A stretch of DNA of 42,965 nucleotides, taken from the IMG/VR virus record IMGVR_UViG_2687453530_000006, positions 1 through 42,965 of that record. One strand, written 5' to 3'. Position 1 is the first letter of the stretch, and every line of letters starts with the position of its first letter. Under the pieces are notes generated by a model. That model made no database searches, was not told where the DNA came from, and worked only from the letters and a program-made list of their open reading frames with translations. A program made the translations under genes and the position numbers. This DNA comes from a virus. Its lineage: Duplodnaviria > Heunggongvirae > Uroviricota > Caudoviricetes. Shown here piece after piece: positions 426 through 42,965 of the stretch.

Positions 426-1010
426 TTACATTGTGTCTGGTTCTTCCGGCCACTCAATATCAGGTGCAGTTGATGTATCAACACGGTTCAGCAACACCCG
501 ATACTTCTTCCAGGCTTCCAGCAATGAGGTTTCTTCCTCCGTTGCGATCTCCAGATCCACAGCATCCTGAAGCGGCGCAATATGCTCACTGGCTACCTGC
601 ATCAGGCTGTTTTTTGTTTCTTCCGCCTCACGGATCCGGAACAGTTTTTCTGCTTCCGTATCCTTCACCCAGGCTGTGCCGTTCCACTTCTGAAACTCCC
701 CTTCCGGCGATAACCAGGTAACATTTTCCGGTAACGGACCGAGTTCAGAAATAAATAACTCGTCCCCTGACGCTACGTCATAAACCGTTTTACCCCGATG
801 GTCTTCAACGAGATGCCACGATGCCTCATCACTGTTGAAAACAGCCACAAAGCCAGCAGGAATATCTGGCGGTGCAATATCGGTACTGTTTGCTGGCAGA
901 CCTGTATGAGGCGGAATATATGCGTCACCTTCACCAATAAATTCATTAGTTCCGGCCAGCAGATTATAAATTTTTATGGTCCGTGGTTGTTCACTCATTC
1001 TGAATGCCAT
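426..1010 (-). CDS. tfa: Tail fiber assembly protein
   Basis: 194-aa ORF immediately downstream of stf; sequence and size typical of lambdoid Tfa proteins as recalled. Confidence 0.85.
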
Positions 1011-4000
1011 TATGCAAGCCTCACAATATAGTTAAATGCGATGTTTTTGACGGTGTTTTCCGCATTACCAGCAGCGTTAACGGTGATGGTGTGTCCATGT
1101 GAACCAATCGCAACGGAGTGCGTATGAGCACCAATACCGACAGTATGCGCGTGTGCACCTGCAGATGCTGCTGTGCCGGACAGTGAGTGGCTATGATTAC
1201 CATCTGTACTGGTATTAGCTAACCACCCCGTAGACATACCTACTGAGCCTTGTACACCCCAGGTATTTTGACCTGAGCTTGTATAACCATATTGATAAGT
1301 ATCTTTAAAAACACTGGGGTTAAATCGACGGCCATCTCTATGGCTGTGATTACCAGCTGCATTCGTGCTGCCACTTAAACTATGAGTATGCGCACCAGTG
1401 TTATTCGTGGATTTAGTGCCGTAATCAAACGATGATGTGGTTTTCGTACCCAAATCCGTACTGGATACGCTGGCGCTGTGGGTGTGCGATTTAATGCCGT
1501 CCTGTTCCTGAGACAATACGGCACGACCACTGGCGGGCTTGCCCTTAATCGTCCAGCCACGCATATCAGGGATCACGCCTGACGGATAAGCGGCTGCAAG
1601 TTTCGGGTAAGCAGATTTGTCAAAAGTCTGCCCCTGCATCAGGGCATAACCAGACGGAACGGTATCTGATGGCCACGGGATTGGTGCGCCGACTGGGTAG
1701 CTTTCTGGTGGAAGATTTTTCGAGGTATAAACTTCTGCCCAGTCTTCCTCAAAACCATAACCGTCTCTTGAAGAACGGTAGAACAGACCACCATTTCTGT
1801 AATGCGCCTTCATCTGCAGGGTCCGGCAACTTCCGACTCCGGTATAGAAGTTAACCAGAATATAGCTGTCGCCAGAGCGGGTGACATTGTAAGCGCCTGA
1901 TTCGGCATTCCAGGGAACGCCACCATCCGCATCGGCATATGTATCCGTTGCCCTTCTGGCAAAAGCAGCCACATGCGCGGCGGTTAAAGTAATATCTTTT
2001 GAACCATCAAACTCAACCCCAGAAACCAGTCTTGGCGTTTGCAGCTTTGTTGCTGTCAATGCGTTACCGTTCAGACTTGCAGACAGCTTGGTTCCAATAA
2101 CCAGTTCGCCGGTTGCGTTATCAATAGCAAACGGTCTTAATGTATTCCATCCACCATAAACATCACCTTGATTGGTAAGCAGCAGGTAAGTTTTAGCGCC
2201 ATCATTACGCCATAATGCCCCATACTCCCCACCTATCATTCGAATCTGATTACCACCACGCGCTACAATTTCGTCTGTGGCAAAAAGTTTTTTGCACGAC
2301 AAGTTATCGTTAACGATTAACGAATGAGACTCATAAAAACCACGCCCACTCTTAAAATCAAGGATAACGTCCGCCGCGATACATTCAGTCGCTGGATTTG
2401 TTGCCCCAAACTTATAGGTCGTATCATTAACAACGAGATCAGCACCAGGTGCGGATATTGACAGGCCATCTTCGATAAACGCAAAAACAGGGAAAGCAGC
2501 GCCATCAACATAGAACACAGAGCGCAAATCATCGCCCTTATTACTCATCATTATTGAGTGGATGGCTCGTTCATTGTTTTGATATTGCCAGAACATTCCA
2601 TAAGCATAACGCCCCCTGTCAGTCCAGCCACCAGGCATAACAAATCCGTTAAACTCGCAGTTATTCATCGGATCGCCTGCGGTTCGCGTTGCCGTGGTGA
2701 TAATGACCCTTGATGCCAGTTCGCTTACTGAGCCAGCAGAACGCATAACAACAACAGGGTAATATTTTCCAGATGTTGCACCTGCAGGAGCGTTAACCCG
2801 CACATAACGCATACCACGCTTATCAGCAAAGTCTGTTTTACTGACCGCGTTAATGTTGTTCAGGAAGCGTCCCTTATCGGGTATATCAGCGCCGTTCTGG
2901 TCTTTCTGCAGACGTTTCTCTGCATTGTCATAGGCTGATTTTACTGCCTTTGGCGTTGCCGCCAGCGTTTCAGACGTGCTGTTGGTCGCGCTGCTTAGCT
3001 GGATTATCCCTTTCTGTGCTGTCGTTGCATCCTGTGCGGTGTATTTCCCGTTAGCCAGGTCATACGCGGCCTTAACGGCTTTTGGCGTTGCCGCCAGTGA
3101 CTCGGAAGTGCTATTGGTCGCACTGCTGAGCTGTACTATCCCCTTTTTCGTCGTGCTCGCATCCTCAAGCGCCACGGCGGATGCAATATCCTCTGCCCGT
3201 TTTGCCGCTGTCTCAGCGCGCGTTGCCGCGGATTCCGCCGTACTTTTGCTCTGAGCTGCCGCCGTCGCACTGCCAGCTGCCTCTGTCGCCTTCGTGGATG
3301 CCGTCGTGGCGCTGCCCTTCGCTGCGGACGCTTGTCTGGTCGCCTCATCTTTTGAAGCAGACGCAGATGATGCCGATGACGCCGCCGAACTGGCGGACGA
3401 TGCGGCAGCCGTTTTTGAGGATTCTGCGCTGGTTTCCGACGCTTTCGCGTTCGTCTCGGATGTCTTCGCTGCGGAAGCAGACCTCGCTGCTGCGCTGGCC
3501 TGTACAGCGGCTTCGCCAGCCTTCGTTGTGGCTGTTGAAGCGGACGATGCAGCACTTTCTGCCGATTTTCCGGCGGCGGTGGCACTGGCTGAGGCCTGCC
3601 CGGCACTTGTTGACGCGGCACTGGCAGACGACGCAGCCGCTGTTTTTGAGCCTGCCGCAGCTGAGGCACTCTGTCCCGCTGCCGTTTCAGAAGACCTGGC
3701 GTTTGTCTCAGACGTCTTTGCCGCCTTCGCGGAATTGCCTGCCGCCGTTGCCGAGGAAGCGGCACTACTGGCGCTTGATGATGCGTTCGTTTCTGATGAT
3801 TTCGCTGCCTCTTTTGAGGCCGCCGCATCCCGGGCTGAGGTGGCTGCTTCTGACGCCTTCGTGGTCGCGGCGGATGCAGAAGTGGCTGCTGATTGTTGTG
3901 ACGCTGCCGCATTCGTTTCTGACGTTTTCGCCGCAGCGGCACTGGTAGCTGCCGCGCTTTTTGAGGACTCTGCAGCAGCAGCACTTTTCGATGCTTCACT

Positions 4001-4546
4001 GGCCTTTGTTGATGCCGTTCCTGCGCTGGAAGATGCTGACTGAGCCGACGACGCGGCCTGTCCGGCTGACGTGCTGGCTGCGCGTGCTGAGCCTGCAGCA
4101 TCAGTCGCATGGGTTGCCGCCTCACGTGCTGATGTGCCGGCATCGCTGGCTGACTTCTTCGCGGCTGCCGTGTTCTGTGCCACCGCGGACGCGTTACGCG
4201 CCACCTCTTCCACCATCAGTTCAAAACGTCGCAGTGCCTCCGGACGGGCATCATCCTCCGTCATGGCACCGAGAAAATCATTCAGCGTACCGGGTTGAGA
4301 ATCTTCATACACGGTGATGGTCCCGGCATGTGACGGCGGGAATCCCTCCACCAACAGAATAACGCTGTACTGACCGTACTCAACGTCCATGCTGTAACGC
4401 CCGGCTTCATCCGGATTTTCTGAGGCCAGCGTGTTCACCACCACAGTGGTACTGTTACGTTTTGCTTTCAGCTGGATTGTGCAGTTCTGTACCGGTTTTC
4501 CTGTGCCGTCTTTCAGTACACCTGAAATCTTTACTGCCATATTCAC
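1010..4546 (-). CDS. stf: Side tail fiber protein with long Ala/Ser-rich repeat region and His-rich C-terminal domain
   Basis: 1178-aa ORF; N-terminus [16 protein letters not shown]... resembles lambda Stf N-terminus as recalled; central low-complexity Ala/Ser/Thr repeats; C-terminal HxH repeats (GAHTHS, GNHSHS, AHAHT) typical of tail fiber tips. Confidence 0.85.
2940..3175. repeat. Tandem duplication of about 132 bp inside stf
   Basis: Near-identical DNA blocks (gcctttggcgttgccgccagcg... and gcttttggcgttgccgccagtg...) encoding repeated [23 protein letters not shown] peptide units. Confidence 0.7.
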
Positions 4547-4550
4547 CCCA

Positions 4551-4578
4551 CAAAAAAGCCCGCCTGAACCGGCGGGCT
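4551..4578 (-). terminator. Rho-independent terminator between lom and stf
   Basis: On the minus strand, stem agcccgcc / ggcgggct with a 6-nt loop followed by a T-run (plus-strand A-run 4552-4557). Confidence 0.5.
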
Positions 4579-4604
4579 GTCATAACACTGTGTTACCTGG
4601 CTAA

Positions 4605-5204
4605 TCAGAATTTATAACCGACACCCACGATGAAACCGTCAGTGCGCCAGTCACCACTGCCGGAGCCTTCATAAGCAATATCAATGGCCACGGATTCGGT
4701 CGGGTTAAACTGCACGCCAGCTCCCCACGCCAGAGACGTGTTGCTGTGGCGACCGTCATCACTTCCGGTCAGCACATCGTGCGTTTTCCCCTTGTTGTCA
4801 GTTACGCGGAGATAATCCCCGGAGAAAGTCGACACACGGCTGTAAGCCACACCCGCCATCGCATACGCGCTGAACCATTCATTCACGCGTACAGACGGCC
4901 CCGCCATCACGCTGAACCAGCGGTTACGCACGGAATCTTCATGCCAGCGGGTATCGCTGTAACGGGTAAGCTGGCGATTCTTGTCTCCTGCATAGCTGAA
5001 TGACGTCACCAGCCCCAGCGTGTCCGTAAATTCATAACGGTATTTCACGTTAATCCCGTTCAGATCATCGCTGCCGGGAACGTTCGTCGAGGCATGAAGA
5101 TACCCCGCGCTCAGCGTGGCCTGCTGCTCAGACGCCCATGCAGGCGCACCGGATACGGCCAGACAGATGGCTGCGGACAAAATGGCTGCACAAACTTTAC
5201 GCAT
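4605..5204 (-). CDS. lom: Lom-like outer membrane protein (Ail/Lom/OmpX family)
   Basis: 199-aa ORF with signal peptide ([24 protein letters not shown]) and beta-barrel-like alternating pattern ending in GYKF; position between J and stf as in lambda. Confidence 0.85.
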
Positions 5205-5225
5205 AATTACCTCTCGCTTTTCTGC

Positions 5226-5253
5226 AATAAAAAAGGCGCCATTTCTGGCGCCC
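5226..5253 (-). terminator. Rho-independent terminator between J and lom
   Basis: On the minus strand, stem ggcgcc-agaaat-ggcgcc followed by ttttttatt. Confidence 0.5.
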
Positions 5254-5271
5254 GTATATGGGTTATAAAAT

Positions 5272-8200
5272 TCAGCTGATACTGATGCCTGCGGTGGCTT
5301 TCTTCATCACCACAACCAGCAAATCGCTGATACTTGCTGTGGGATACCAGTCATTTACCAGCCATGCTGACACCGAAAACTCCAGCGTCATGTGGCCGTG
5401 ACCAGCTGGCATATCAATAACACCACTGTAAATCAGCGTATTATCCAGCGCGGTACGGTTATAAATTTCAGCACCATTTTTCTTCACTATCAGGCGGCAT
5501 GACGAATAAATATCGTTATTCTCCCGCTCATGTTTAGCGCCGCAGAATGCCACCGCCGGAATAACAATTTGCCTGTCAAAAGGCTGATCGTCATAAATCC
5601 TGACGGTAATGGTCCCTGATGGCCACCGCTCCGGTGCCCGGGAGTCCCGCGGGAAAGCCTTACCCACTGTTTTGACAATATCGCCTTCAATCTGGTTGGC
5701 TGACAGTTTCCCTTTAATCTGACAGTTCTCATTTATCGTAACGTTGTTGAGCGTCCCGGAGTTCGCATTCACACTGCCACTGATATCTGCATTTTTAGCG
5801 GTCAGCTTTCCGTCCGGTGTCAGGGAAAATGCCGGAGGATTACCGCCGCTGGTAATGGTCGGAGCCGTCAGGCGTTTCAGGAACACGTCGTTCATGAATA
5901 TCTGATCGCCCTGACCAACAAACATTGGTCTTGTGTTGCCATTAGACGGATCAATAAACGCGATACGGTTAGCGGCAACCAGGAACTGGCTCAGTTTGCC
6001 TTCCTCCGTGTCCTCCATGCTGAGGCCAATACCCGCGACATAATGTTTGCCGTCTTTGGTCTGCTCAATTTTGACGCCCCACATGGCATTCCACTTATCG
6101 TTGGCGTCCTTCCACTCTTTCGAAAACTGCTCCAGTTTGCTGGCGTTATCTTCCGTCAGCTCAAAGTTTTCCAGTAGCTCCTTGCCGAGATGCGTTTTAT
6201 TGATCAACCCTTTATAAAAATTCAGATAACCTTCCGCATCATCGCTCGCCCGACCGACGGCCTCCACAAATGCCGATTTACCAACGGTATTCACGCTGCG
6301 GATATAAAAGTAATAATCATAACCCGGCTTAATATTGCTACTGGCAGCTATCCAGTACAGCGCCGTGCCAAGATAGCGGGCTGTGGTTTCAACCTGCCTG
6401 ATATCAGCAATCCGTTTTTCCGAGAACCAGAACTCAAACTGTACCGTCGGGTCATAAACCGCAAGATGCGGCGTGGCGGTTATCTGAAAATAGCCCGGTG
6501 TCAGCTCAATCCGAGACGGCGCTGCCGGTGCGGCAATCCGGAACGATACCGATGCCGGATCGCCCTGCTGTCCCCACGCATTTACCGCCCGGACTGTCAG
6601 CCTGTAGTTCCCCAGCGCCAGTTGCGTGAAGCGGTATGTGGTTTCCGTCGTCCGGACCGTGCTGACCAGCCGCTCACTGCCGTCGTCCGCTGTTACGGTC
6701 AGACGGAGCAGGAAGCTCACGCCCTTCACCACCTTCGGTGTGTCCCATCGCGCCAGCACCTGATATTCCCCGCTGTCTGCGGTGACTTCGGCAGTCAGGT
6801 GCTGCACCGCTGGCGGCGTGACACCATTCACCGTGCCGCTCTGGTCGCCGTCAAAGTGCGCCCCGTTATCCACGATGGCTTCTTTTTCCGGTACATGCTG
6901 CACGGCAGTGATGGCATACGTGCCGTCATCGTTCTCACGGATACTCACACAGCGGAACAGGCGCTGGCGCAGCGTCGGCAGCTTCAGCCCCCATACGCTG
7001 TATCCGGCAACGCCGTCAGGAACACGGCTCACTTTTACCTTCACGCCGTCGGTGACGGACTGGACCTCCACGCTGACCGGATTGCCGCTTCCGTCAACCA
7101 GGCTTATCAGCGTGGTACCGGAGGATGGCAGCGTGATTTCACGGTCGAGCGTCAGCGTCCGGGTCTGGCTGTTCACCGCCAGCACGCGCCCGCCGGTGCG
7201 GATACCGGCATAGTCATCATCGCAGATTTCAATGACATCGCCCGGTACATGGCGAAGCCCTTCAGCACCCACGCTGAAATCCACGGTCTGCGTCTCCAGC
7301 AGTTCTGTTTTAATCAGCCACAGCCCGGCGCGGTGTGCCTGCCCCCGGCTGGTACAGCCAAAGGCATCCATCTTCGTGACGTTACGACCGTAACGGACAA
7401 TGGCCTGCGTATCCTCCACAAGCTCTGTCGCCGTCTCCCAGCCGTTATCCGGGTCAATCCAGTTCACCTCAACGGCATTATGGCGGTCTTTCAGGGCGCT
7501 GAAGCTGTAGCGGAACGGCGCGCCATCATCCGGCATCACCACATTACTGCGGTTATAGGTCCACACCTTATCCGACGGTCGGTCCTGCACGAACGTCAGC
7601 GTCTGCCCGTTCCATACCGGCATACAGCGCATCGCCGAGCAGAAATCGCTGAGCACATCCCACGCCTTACGCTGTGTGGTCAGGTATGCATTACAGGTGA
7701 TGCGCGGCTCCGTGCCGCCAAAACCATTCGGTACCAACTGGTCGCAGTACTGGCCGATGACATACAGCGTCCATTTATCCACATCTGCTGCACCAAGACG
7801 TATCCCCATGCCGTAGCGCGGATGGGTCAGCATATCCCACAGACACCATGCCATGTTGTTGCTGTATGCCGGTTTAAACGTTCCGTCCCAGATACCGCTG
7901 TATTGCCGCGTCTGCGGGTTATAATTCGACGGCACCTGCAGAATACGCCCGCGCAGATGATAATTACGGCTCACCTGCTGGCTGCCGAACTGCTCCGAGT
8001 CCACCTGCACGCCGACCAGTGCCGTGTTCGGGTAGCACTGTTTCACATCGATGATTTCTGTGTATGACGACCAGAGCGTTTTGTTCTGCAGCTGGTCTGT
8101 GGTGCTGTCCGGCGTCATCCTGCGCATCCGGATATTAAACGGGCGCGGCGGCAGGTTATCCACCACCACCGAGGCCAGATACTGCGAGGTGGTTTTGCCC

Positions 8201-33905: not shown

Positions 33906-34138
33906 GCTGCACCTCCGAGATGCTTCATGTTTTTTCCGGAGCGAAAGGCTATAAGCGGCATACTGACGCGGTAATTACGGCCCAGCGGTTCACAAATCAC
34001 CTTCTGGCATTCACGGTCAACCAGGCTAACACGTAGAACATGCCCTGCAGGTGTGGTGTACCACTGCCCAACTGTAGGAATTGATGTTTTTTTACGCTGA
34101 AATAAACGGTAAATGTTGAGGATCAACGGATTAAGCAT
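33902..34138 (-). CDS. Hypothetical protein
   Basis: 78-aa ORF with start and stop overlapping neighbouring genes (operon-like coupling). Confidence 0.4.
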   Translation of the reverse strand: MLNPLILNIYRLFQRKKTSIPTVGQWYTTPAGHVLRVSLVDRECQKVICEPLGRNYRVSMPLIAFRSGKNMKHLGGAA

Positions 34139-34967
34139 GACGATGCCCTCCGCTGATATTCAGGAGACGGTGAATATGAAAATTAGCCTTATCCGCCAGA
34201 CGAATACGTTCAGCCTGCAAGTTAAGAAGGGTTTCTACCAAAACCTGATGCGCCTGCGGATCCGAAAGAGTTACCTTGCGCAGAGCACGTAGTGCAGTTG
34301 TTACATAACTGAGTTTATGTAAGTCTTCATCATTCAGACGAGTGAGGGCTGGGACAGTAGCCATGATGGCAGCCTCCGATAACAGTGAATTACCTTCACC
34401 ACCGGAAACGCCAATTTCGCTGGTGGTGAACTGAACGGGGTTGGCGTAACCGGCGTTATCGGAAACCGGCGCACCTTTCGGTGCCCCCGTCCAGCCCACC
34501 ATAATTTGGGTGTGCACAGACGCAGACGATAAAAAAGACGCTGGCGCGTCATATATCGCCGATAACATTTCCAGGACGCCAATCCCGGCACCCGCTTTAT
34601 AAGGTGCCTGAACAGTGTAACGTCCCGGAATGGCAGAATCAATGTGCTGGTGGTCCTTCACACTCAACAAAATCACGCCTGAATTTCCACAAAGGACTAA
34701 AGCACTCATGCGGGTAGTCTTTGCGAAGATAGATAACGCGCTGTGTTTCTGGCTCCCAACGAATAACATGAACATAAAGTCCTCTTCCGTCACGAAACCA
34801 GCGGTTAAGTTCCTGCACAACTCGCCCCCCACAGTCAGGTAAAGTTCTCTGTGGTTACTTACAGCCAGGTGATTTGGTAATCTGCATTCATGCCGTAACA
34901 ACAGGTGTTCAGCGACGCTGACCACCAGCTGTTGCGACAAACGGTTATTTGCCGTTAAACTGTTCAT
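34131..34967 (-). CDS. Hypothetical protein (early right operon)
   Basis: 278-aa ORF between the cII-like gene and the replication gene; no recognisable motif. Confidence 0.45.
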   Translation of the reverse strand: MNSLTANNRLSQQLVVSVAEHLLLRHECRLPNHLAVSNHRELYLTVGGELCRNLTAGFVTEEDFMFMLFVGSQKHSALSIFAKTTRMSALVLCGNSGVILLSVKDHQHIDSAIPGRYTVQAPYKAGAGIGVLEMLSAIYDAPASFLSSASVHTQIMVGWTGAPKGAPVSDNAGYANPVQFTTSEIGVSGGEGNSLLSEAAIMATVPALTRLNDEDLHKLSYVTTALRALRKVTLSDPQAHQVLVETLLNLQAERIRLADKANFHIHRLLNISGGHRHA

Positions 34968-41616: not shown

Positions 41617-41889
41617 ATGAACACCTTGTTTTTACTGATGGCTGAATTCAATACCCCTAACATTGAACTCTCAGCAGTTAGCCAAAAGTACTTTGGCATG
41701 AGTCCAGCCACGGCAGAAGCAAAAGCAAACGCTTGTAAGTTGCCCGTTCCAACATATCGCATCGGCACATCACAAAAAGCAAAACGTTGCATCAATATTC
41801 AGGATCTTGCGGAATACATAGACAAAAGACGAGAAGAAGGGCGTGCTGAGTGGGAAAGGGTCAGAACCCATAAACAAAGGCTCATTTAA
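41617..41889 (+). CDS. Excisionase-like DNA-binding protein
   Basis: 90 aa from the Met at 41617, preceded by GGAG; last gene of the early-left operon where xis normally lies; the ORF extends upstream to 41590. Confidence 0.5.
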   Translation: MNTLFLLMAEFNTPNIELSAVSQKYFGMSPATAEAKANACKLPVPTYRIGTSQKAKRCINIQDLAEYIDKRREEGRAEWERVRTHKQRLI

Positions 41890-41922
41890 ATAGAATATGA
41901 ATAAACCCATCCAAAGATGGGT

Positions 41923-42384
41923 TTATTCATAATGTTGAAGAGCAGCGAGTATCAGTTTTTTATGCCGTTTAACCATAGTTTTAGATATCTCAACTGCACA
42001 TCGAACTTGTCTCATACAATGATCTGTAATGCGACCTTTTAGCACGTCACCATATTGGATGGCTATTTTCTCTTTAATAATTTCAAGATCGAAAGCAGCA
42101 TGAGCCTCAATGCAATTAACAAATGAGTCCCATTTAAGAAAATCATGGTCCTCTCTATTAATTTCGACCTGACAAGCCATAAGATCATTGTTTCTCTTAA
42201 TAAATTCATTTATATCTGAATTTATTAGAAGAACTAAAAGAGGTTCACAGCAAACAACCACCATATATTTTACTTTAGGTGGGGTCGTAAAATCACAATG
42301 AAGATACAATACATCACCGGGTGATATACCTCTTTCACGACTAAAATTAGCCTTAAAATCAGGAGGGAAACAATCACCCAGCAT
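41923..42384 (-). CDS. Hypothetical protein, candidate toxin partner of the Panacea-domain protein
   Basis: 153 aa from the ATG at 42384, which lies 5 nt after the stop of the upstream Panacea-domain ORF; AT-rich; no recognisable motif. Confidence 0.4.
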   Translation of the reverse strand: MLGDCFPPDFKANFSRERGISPGDVLYLHCDFTTPPKVKYMVVVCCEPLLVLLINSDINEFIKRNNDLMACQVEINREDHDFLKWDSFVNCIEAHAAFDLEIIKEKIAIQYGDVLKGRITDHCMRQVRCAVEISKTMVKRHKKLILAALQHYE

Positions 42385-42389
42385 AAGTA

Positions 42390-42965
42390 TCAATATCCGT
42401 TCTTCAGATAATCCAGTATTAATTTGCTATTTTTTAGCTGTGCAACTATCGATTCCAAAGACATCTCACCATTGTGATCTGCCTGTTCCCATGCCGCGTC
42501 ATGGCTCATGGTTCTGATAGCTTCAAAGGACATGTTTCCAAGCATCGCGATAGACTTATCAATACACTCTAAATCTGAGTCACTAAAAAAGTCTTCATCA
42601 GCTTCACGGCTCGGCACAATCGTCATACCTGATACAGAAAATGCTTTTCGCACAGAATCGACATCACAACCATTAGGAATGTAACGTCCATCTCCACGAG
42701 CAATTTTTATAATATCGTATGTGTTGCTTGCTACAGGCCCATCCTTCATAGCGTTATAGTGATCGCCCGTTATGAGGCGTCCAAAACTTTCAAGGTGAAA
42801 CCTGTCAGCATAATAAAGAATTTTTCCGACATGATAGATATCTGGGATCGGTGCTTTAGAGGCGACGTACAGAATGGCCTCTAAAGCCTTTTCTGAATCA
42901 AACCTTACATTTAGCATCAATACACCCTTCATCCAAACAACATCGTCAAGCTCTGGCAAATGCAA
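42390..42965 (-). CDS. Panacea-domain (DUF4065) protein, putative antitoxin; 5' end at or beyond the window edge
   Basis: 191-aa ORF reaching the window boundary; KALEAILYVASKAP...VGKILYYADRFHLESFGRLITGDHYNAMKDGPVASNTYDII fits the Panacea domain pattern as recalled. Confidence 0.55.
   Translation of the reverse strand: MHLPELDDVVWMKGVLMLNVRFDSEKALEAILYVASKAPIPDIYHVGKILYYADRFHLESFGRLITGDHYNAMKDGPVASNTYDIIKIARGDGRYIPNGCDVDSVRKAFSVSGMTIVPSREADEDFFSDSDLECIDKSIAMLGNMSFEAIRTMSHDAAWEQADHNGEMSLESIVAQLKNSKLILDYLKNGY

Follow-up and report, generated by a model that had tools for sequence, protein, structure and literature searches.

The stretch of DNA analyzed here (the window) covers positions 1 to 42,965 of the viral record IMGVR_UViG_2687453530_000006 (Caudoviricetes), and its last kilobase carries two adjacent genes, here referred to as panA and panT, that encode a Panacea-domain (DUF4065) protein and a partner of 153 amino acids (aa), respectively. 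As argued below, the pair is probably a type II PanAT toxin–antitoxin operon, carried as cargo of low guanine–cytosine (GC) content at the attachment site (att)-proximal end of a lambdoid prophage integrated at dusA.

Layout of the Gene Pair

Both genes are located on the minus strand, where an initial annotation made from the sequence alone had placed them (Table 1). The upstream open reading frame (ORF) spans 42390..42965 and yields 191 aa when read from the window edge, the downstream ORF is given in its ATG form, and the TGA of the former (42392..42390) is separated from the ATG of the latter (42384..42382) by exactly the 5 nucleotides (nt) originally reported. The short spacer suggests translational coupling of panA and panT. 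The AT-richness of the pair was likewise borne out, GC content being 36-40% over 41750-42750 vs. 45-51% in the 3 kb before it, an early-gene region, and the genes do lie on the strand opposite the xis-containing operon, convergent with a PrtN/excisionase (xis)-type gene at 41617..41889. A terminator scan located a hairpin with a 16-pair stem and a 4-nt loop (L001 8342..8307), which overlaps the panT stop codon (41923..41925) and can terminate both convergent transcripts, i.e., that from the xis side and that of panAT.

Table 1. Coordinates of the panAT genes and adjoining features in the window.
Feature	Coordinates	Strand	Basis
panA, gene for a predicted standalone Panacea-domain (DUF4065) antitoxin, most likely 175 aa	42390..42917	-	PF13274 match, homolog starts, Shine-Dalgarno sequence, AlphaFold model
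panA-panT intergenic spacer, 5 nt	42385..42389	-	read from sequence
panT, gene for a putative toxin (153 aa) whose beta-barrel core is MazF/PemK-like, PanT cluster T5	41923..42384	-	
Hairpin terminator common to the xis-side operon and the panAT operon	41896..41931	.	terminator scan

Domain, Start Codon, and Structure of PanA

A hidden Markov model search confirmed the Panacea (DUF4065) assignment of the upstream ORF, which matches Pfam PF13274 (SocA_Panacea) with an E-value of 5e-20 and 72.9 bits, where the gathering score is 25.7; the match spans positions 3-112 of the 113 in the profile, and phrog_1281 of PHROGs is matched as well (E = 1.5e-20). The N-terminus, by contrast, is not missing from the window as had been assumed. 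Homologs of PanA open at the conserved sequence MLxxRFDSEKA(L/I)EAILY, as seen in 84 database homologs and in the upstream gene of each of 14 related loci, their modal length is 175 aa, and the sequence before that methionine is not conserved. The conserved methionine corresponds in the window to the ATG at 42917, and the sequence AAGGG (42929..42925) is located 7 nt upstream of it. Because of these homolog starts, the modal length, and the AAGGG element, this ATG is most likely the start codon, and the gene is therefore most likely complete within the window. The RefSeq form (WP_001535325.1, “Panacea domain-containing protein,” 193 aa) begins 6 nt past the window end; its additional N-terminal part covers 42918-42965 plus 6 nt, and its start, which precedes that of homologs from many genera by 18 codons, is probably placed too far upstream.

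The AlphaFold model of PanA, obtained with 40 homologs, reaches a predicted local distance difference test score (pLDDT) of 95 and a predicted template modeling score (pTM) of 0.91. The modeled protein is compact throughout, with neither a disordered tail nor an extra domain. A Foldseek comparison of the model with the PDB returned no solved structure at E-values up to 1e-3, and the Panacea domain is thus one for which this search provides no solved structural relative.

Family and Fold of PanT

No match to PanT was found in Pfam (E-values up to 1) or NCBIfam, and only noise was obtained from PADLOC and PHROGs. Nevertheless, the protein belongs to a large family: a word-index search returned 41 clusters from Enterobacterales and Idiomarina, all of 148-157 aa, and an exhaustive profile search returned 1,246 representatives (50% identity) at E-values up to 1e-3, including 621 at E-values up to 1e-10, nearly all of which are approximately 150 aa long. 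The AlphaFold model (pLDDT 90.6, pTM 0.83) shows that PanT has the MazF fold, i.e., the SH3-like barrel of MazF/Kid/CcdB, to which, in comparison with MazF, a helix is added at the N-terminus and a helical extension at the C-terminus. The earlier statement that the downstream ORF has no recognizable motif therefore stands with respect to profile libraries and fails with respect to the fold. Since the family is invisible to Pfam and NCBIfam, its genes are annotated as “hypothetical” everywhere.

Among 94 diverse members of the family, K39 and S87 are invariant, and 90% or more of the family retains G23, F32, K37, N55, S56, Q72, F82, L83, and C91. The catalytic residues of E. coli MazF are an arginine (R29) and a threonine (T52), and a serine contacts the substrate. 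A weak global hhalign alignment places K39 on R29 and N55/S56 on T52/T53 of E. coli MazF, and S87 falls in a “DS” motif. The alignment is not statistically significant, and only the register was taken from it, as a weak guide.

Relation to the Published PanAT Class

PanA and PanT were defined by Kurata et al. (2022) in PNAS, with 88 toxin clusters (PMC8832971). In Dataset S1 of that article, WP_054475897.1 of Photorhabdus heterorhabditis is listed under PanT cluster T5, with a PanA as its partner, in antitoxin-then-toxin order with 3-nt spacing, and HHpred matches of T5 to EndoA/MazF/PemK (approximately 99.5%) and to CcdB (approximately 98%) are recorded (PMC8832971). PanT of the window is 53% identical (E = 9e-51) to the database sequence P0033, whose 90% cluster contains the T5-listed WP_054475897.1 (P0192), and it is therefore placed by its sequence in the published cluster T5. 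The accessions WP_000900143 and WP_001535325 were not found in the portion of Dataset S1 that was searched (PMC8832971).

The sole T5 pair tested is that of Chryseobacterium bovis, labeled “MazF,” whose toxin is toxic in E. coli (PMC8832971). The named members of Bacteroidetes were not reached by a word-index search with the broad alignment of the PanT family, and the link between PanT of the window and the C. bovis toxin runs through the published T5 cluster label. Furthermore, the MazF-like PanTs of clusters T6 (P. moraviensis) and T25 (B. ruminantium) have been validated as neutralized by PanA and as forming complexes with it, PanA-PanT complexes having been pulled down (PMC8832971), and standalone Panacea proteins are reported to neutralize toxins directly (Ernits et al., 2023; PMC10440598). 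PanAT T5 is thus a class predicted in print and not fully validated, to which the pair of the window adds a member in an E. coli prophage. As a native E. coli T5 pair, it allows toxicity and neutralization to be examined in the natural host, unlike the heterologous C. bovis pair.

The likeness to the T5 systems (PMC8832971) extends to the arrangement, in which a standalone Panacea antitoxin gene lies upstream of that of a MazF-fold partner of approximately 150 aa with a spacer of a few nucleotides, whereas the location in an E. coli lambdoid prophage sets the present pair apart. The T6 and T25 systems similarly combine a Panacea antitoxin with a toxin of predicted EndoA/PemK/MazF fold, but they belong to other sequence clusters. 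The NCBI Conserved Domain Database identifies T25 as PemK; PanT and 94 of its relatives, in contrast, match no Pfam entry. MazEF and Kid-Kis (PemIK) differ in several respects: PanT has no sequence-profile match to them and carries the two helical additions, Lys would, by the weak alignment, take the place of the MazF Arg and Asn-Ser that of the Thr, and the antitoxin is a globular Panacea protein instead of one with the AbrB/MazE fold and a disordered C-terminal tail.

Pairing and Decay Across Genomes

The association of the two genes was followed in a scan that took one genome per species and a narrower alignment of the PanT family, the broad one being without a conserved stretch. The scan recovered 14 loci with PanT relatives, i.e., ten from Photorhabdus and the remainder from Proteus, Atlantibacter, Serratia, and Idiomarina. 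A PanA homolog is located directly upstream on the same strand in all 14 (phmmer E-values from 2e-33 to 5e-76), with spacers of 1-42 nt, mostly 3-5. The same holds for five loci, metagenomic or genomic, whose PanT relatives are more remote (25-39% identity). Each has a SocA_Panacea gene 6-12 nt upstream, and their contexts are unrelated: an IS1595 element adjoins one, a classical PemK pair another, and a type I restriction-modification system a third. The pairing is thus obligate across taxa, and the downstream ORF behaves as the cognate partner that had been supposed. The initial annotation would have been refuted by an upstream ORF that failed Panacea profiles, which is not the case; with the partner assigned to T5 and the Panacea gene upstream in 19 of 19 loci, the PanA/PanT candidate proposed there is supported. 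Furthermore, when 11 loci were compared in pairs, PanA identity tracked PanT identity with a correlation of r = 0.92; the comparisons, although not phylogenetically independent, show joint inheritance of the two genes.

The Photorhabdus copies of the module share one fixed position on the chromosome, flanked by a multicopper oxidase gene and hpt, with other toxin–antitoxin-like genes adjoining; the module is therefore autonomous and not specific to phages. HigA-like and classical MazEF/PemK-like pairs adjoin it there (L005-L018, approximately 3400-5900), and the region looks like a small toxin–antitoxin island.

Among 5,426 complete E. coli genomes, 45 carry the pair, in every case as a chromosomal copy; identity is at least 99% in 44 of the 45, and plasmids were searched and yielded none. 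Decay affects one gene only. The PanT homolog is truncated or frameshifted beside an intact PanA in 4 of the 14 loci, all from Photorhabdus (L013, L016, L017, and L018). Among the E. coli carriers, five of the 45 (L024, which is NZ_AP043633.1, and, judged by match length, H67-H70), O166:H15 strains included, show a match longer by 1 nt. In strain AST240, and verified in this genome only, a T insertion at approximately 42066 shifts the frame of panT after residue 106 and leaves PanA intact, and the frameshift allele (P0196) was seen on 82 contigs. Loss of PanA with PanT intact was never seen among the loci and E. coli genomes examined. This one-sided decay provides indirect evidence that PanT is the costly partner of the pair, and the toxin label draws indirect support from it, from the MazF fold, and from the toxicity of the C. 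bovis T5 member.

Position in the Prophage

In the genome NZ_CP026935.2, a truncated 5′ fragment of dusA is located approximately 140 nt past the annotated PanA start and is followed by a DUF2713-family pseudogene, zur, yjbJ, dinF, and lexA; the pseudogene presumably occupies the yjbM position of the K-12 map. The other prophage end carries a full-length dusA, a tyrosine integrase gene, and a DinI-like gene. The two dusA 5′ regions form an imperfect duplication, with the crossover near position 9523 of L001, approximately 147 nt past the window end. Such geometry is known for dusA-specific integrases (PMC4482086). In the related phage mEp460, whose map is circular, xis is followed by two small minus-strand genes, attP, int, dinI, and the tail fibre gene. 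The panAT pair thus fills a variable cargo slot between xis and attP of a dusA-integrated lambdoid prophage. The initial annotation had located the pair where an integrase would be expected, which misread this geometry: with the order xis, slot, attP, and int, integration separates the integrase from the pair. Replacement of the integrase by the pair is ruled out, as the integrase is found, together with the full-length dusA, at the other prophage end.

Proposed Mechanism and Alternative Explanations

For the toxin–antitoxin operon that we favor, the toxicity of PanT, its RNase chemistry, its direct binding by PanA, the trigger, and the biological role are features that we infer. A promoter within the stretch of approximately 200 nt that separates panA from the end of the prophage, just beyond the window, would drive panA and panT from the minus strand; the two genes would be translationally coupled over the 5-nt gap, and transcription would stop at the hairpin common to the convergent xis operon. 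With its MazF/PemK-type barrel, PanT would most likely be an endoribonuclease that arrests translation, in which, as far as the weak alignment can be followed, Lys39 and Asn55-Ser56 would stand at the positions of the catalytic Arg and Thr of MazF, and Ser87 at that of its substrate-contacting Ser. The compact PanA, without an extra neutralizing or DNA-binding domain, would most likely bind PanT through its globular domain, and growth would stop once PanT was freed or activated, for instance by phage infection or by loss of the prophage.

Several results weigh against this reading. A Pfam scan of the 94 diverse members of the PanT family matched no family, PemK_toxin (PF02452) included; PDB sequence searches with two profiles of the family gave no match to MazF; and hhalign comparisons of the family with B. 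subtilis MazF or with a four-sequence MazF alignment were not significant. The putative catalytic residues are themselves unlike those of MazF, with Lys for Arg and Asn-Ser for Thr. In PADLOC-DB v2, PanA matched nothing and PanT matched only PDC-M02B (E = 0.016, 12 bits). As for regulation, a promoter-like site (TTGACC, 18 nt, TAAGAT) is located 13-42 nt upstream of the RefSeq PanA start, beyond the window, but it is a 9/12 consensus match of a kind that shuffled sequence yields at least as often; operator-like repeats were looked for upstream of panA and none were found. Among the published systems, eight predicted PanTs were found not to be toxic, and the neutralization test of the one T5 pair failed because the PanA of C. 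bovis is itself toxic in E. coli (PMC8832971).

The alternatives concern either the biological role of the pair or the chemistry of its products. A function in abortive infection or superinfection defense, in which the Panacea domain would sense an infection cue and free or activate the MazF-fold effector, is plausible but less likely than not; it addresses the biological role and is compatible with a toxin–antitoxin mechanism. The pair has a terminator of its own, runs on the other strand from the lytic early operon, and is housed in an accessory slot of variable content at the end of the prophage; other pairs of toxin–antitoxin type occupy the same slot in sister phages. One distant homolog adjoins a type I restriction-modification system, and a sensor role of the Panacea domain has been hypothesized (Ernits et al., 2023; PMC10440598). 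However, the pair matches no model of PADLOC-DB v2, the PanAT literature consulted reports no pair that protects against phage, and the Photorhabdus pair is located at a chromosomal site outside prophages, beside other toxin–antitoxin loci.

An addiction module, in which a stable PanT and a labile PanA would kill or arrest prophage-free cells and thereby stabilize the element at dusA, corresponds to the classical role of type II toxin–antitoxin systems on mobile elements and would suit a pair at the very end of the element, approximately 150-200 nt from attR, with the conservation noted above in 44 of 45 carrier genomes. We nevertheless consider it rather unlikely: the prediction for PanA is a compact, well-folded protein without a disordered, protease-prone tail, chromosomes also carry the module at fixed sites that are not in prophages, and panT is frameshifted in approximately 11% of the E. 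coli carriers while the prophage end is retained.

It is improbable that PanT has the MazF/CcdB-like fold without being an RNase, such that it would poison gyrase like CcdB or act on another target, or that the pair is nontoxic and serves another phage function. Least probable is a type VI system like SocAB of Caulobacter, with PanA as an adaptor delivering PanT to ClpXP for degradation: SocA is the founding Panacea-domain protein, the antitoxins have this domain (DUF4065) in common, and several databases label PanA as “SocA family,” but PanA scores 17.4 bits with the NCBIfam SocA equivalog NF047745, below the cut-off of 190, the partner is a MazF-fold protein unlike SocB and without a match to curated toxin-family models in Pfam or NCBIfam, and direct complexes were found for every PanAT pair tested by Kurata et al. 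(PMC8832971). On the equivalog score, membership of the pair in SocAB was rejected.

Module Swapping in the xis-attP Slot

The xis of this phage group is found in 740 E. coli genomes, only 45 of which hold the panAT pair, and other modules occupy the slot in related phages. In phiSTEC1575-Stx2k, 1720a-02, and PhiR47_1, the slot contains a 157-aa Panacea protein (Pfam E = 6e-18) and, 22 nt on, a 182-aa protein with C-terminal hydrophobic segments, annotated as PanA and PanT in PV340566. The validated T3 pair of E. coli STEC O31 has the antitoxin-then-toxin order, 22-nt spacing, and a membrane toxin (PMC8832971), a description that the 157-aa/182-aa pair fits, although matching accessions could not be confirmed. 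The PanA of this STEC O31-like pair shows approximately 33% identity to PanA of the window over 40 residues, and the toxins are unrelated. In Lys8385Vzw and SKA5, the slot contains a 190-aa Panacea protein (Pfam E = 2e-19), whose gene overlaps by 4 nt with a 139-aa ORF, together with a 57-aa ORF. The 139-aa protein of Lys8385Vzw (L022 3070-3489, minus strand) aligns with the PanT family with an hhalign probability of 66% (E = 5e-5) and has an INS-like motif and a DHxF(I/L)KHxSY motif in common with it; it is probably a weak, distant relative, and these two PanT types of the slot may be very distant homologs.

Slots with other contents are those of PhiR40_1 (L023 2827-3817, minus strand), with a 179-aa protein without a Pfam match and a YafO toxin (Pfam E = 2e-21), and of mEp460, with 177-aa and 57-aa proteins of unknown function. 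The 179-aa protein of PhiR40_1 has a hydrophobic, signal-peptide-like N-terminus and is annotated as “YafM antitoxin,” an unusual partner for YafO. The 57-aa ORF beside xis is 95% identical between mEp460 (L004 3857-4030, minus strand) and Lys8385Vzw (L022 2857-3030, minus strand) despite differing neighboring cargo genes, and it is absent from the window.

The slot thus houses no fewer than three PanA lineages, whose mutual identity is only 20-32%, in otherwise near-identical phages, with partners that are of MazF fold, of membrane type, or, in the case of the 139-aa protein, divergent and MazF-like. The membrane-type pair occurs in 79 and the Lys8385-type pair in 208 complete E. coli genomes, counts that are genome-wide and include copies whose position in the slot was not confirmed; together, the three modules are found in approximately 330 of the 5,426. 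We tentatively propose, while regarding the idea as somewhat doubtful, that the xis-attP slot of dusA-integrating lambdoid coliphages is a dedicated exchange point for whole Panacea modules. Within a single phage lineage, the slot illustrates how Panacea proteins exchange partners in nature. If the modules are infection-triggered effectors, it would provide a natural isogenic series for what the Panacea domain senses and would also show how a globular domain that lacks a solved structure neutralizes a MazF-fold toxin without a MazE-like tail.

Other Features of the Window

Two gathering-level Rfam matches on the minus strand, to the C4 antisense RNA (34419-34506, 82.8 bits) and to the Hfq-binding RNA isrK (34531-34607, 63.7 bits), lie side by side, inside or next to a 278-aa minus-strand ORF (34131..34967), and suggest that this lambdoid prophage carries a c4-antirepressor immunity element of the P1/P7 type. 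Furthermore, a full-length match to the Rfam IS009 RNA (469-667, minus strand, 224 bits) is located inside a 194-aa ORF (426..1010) and adjoins the tail-fibre gene.

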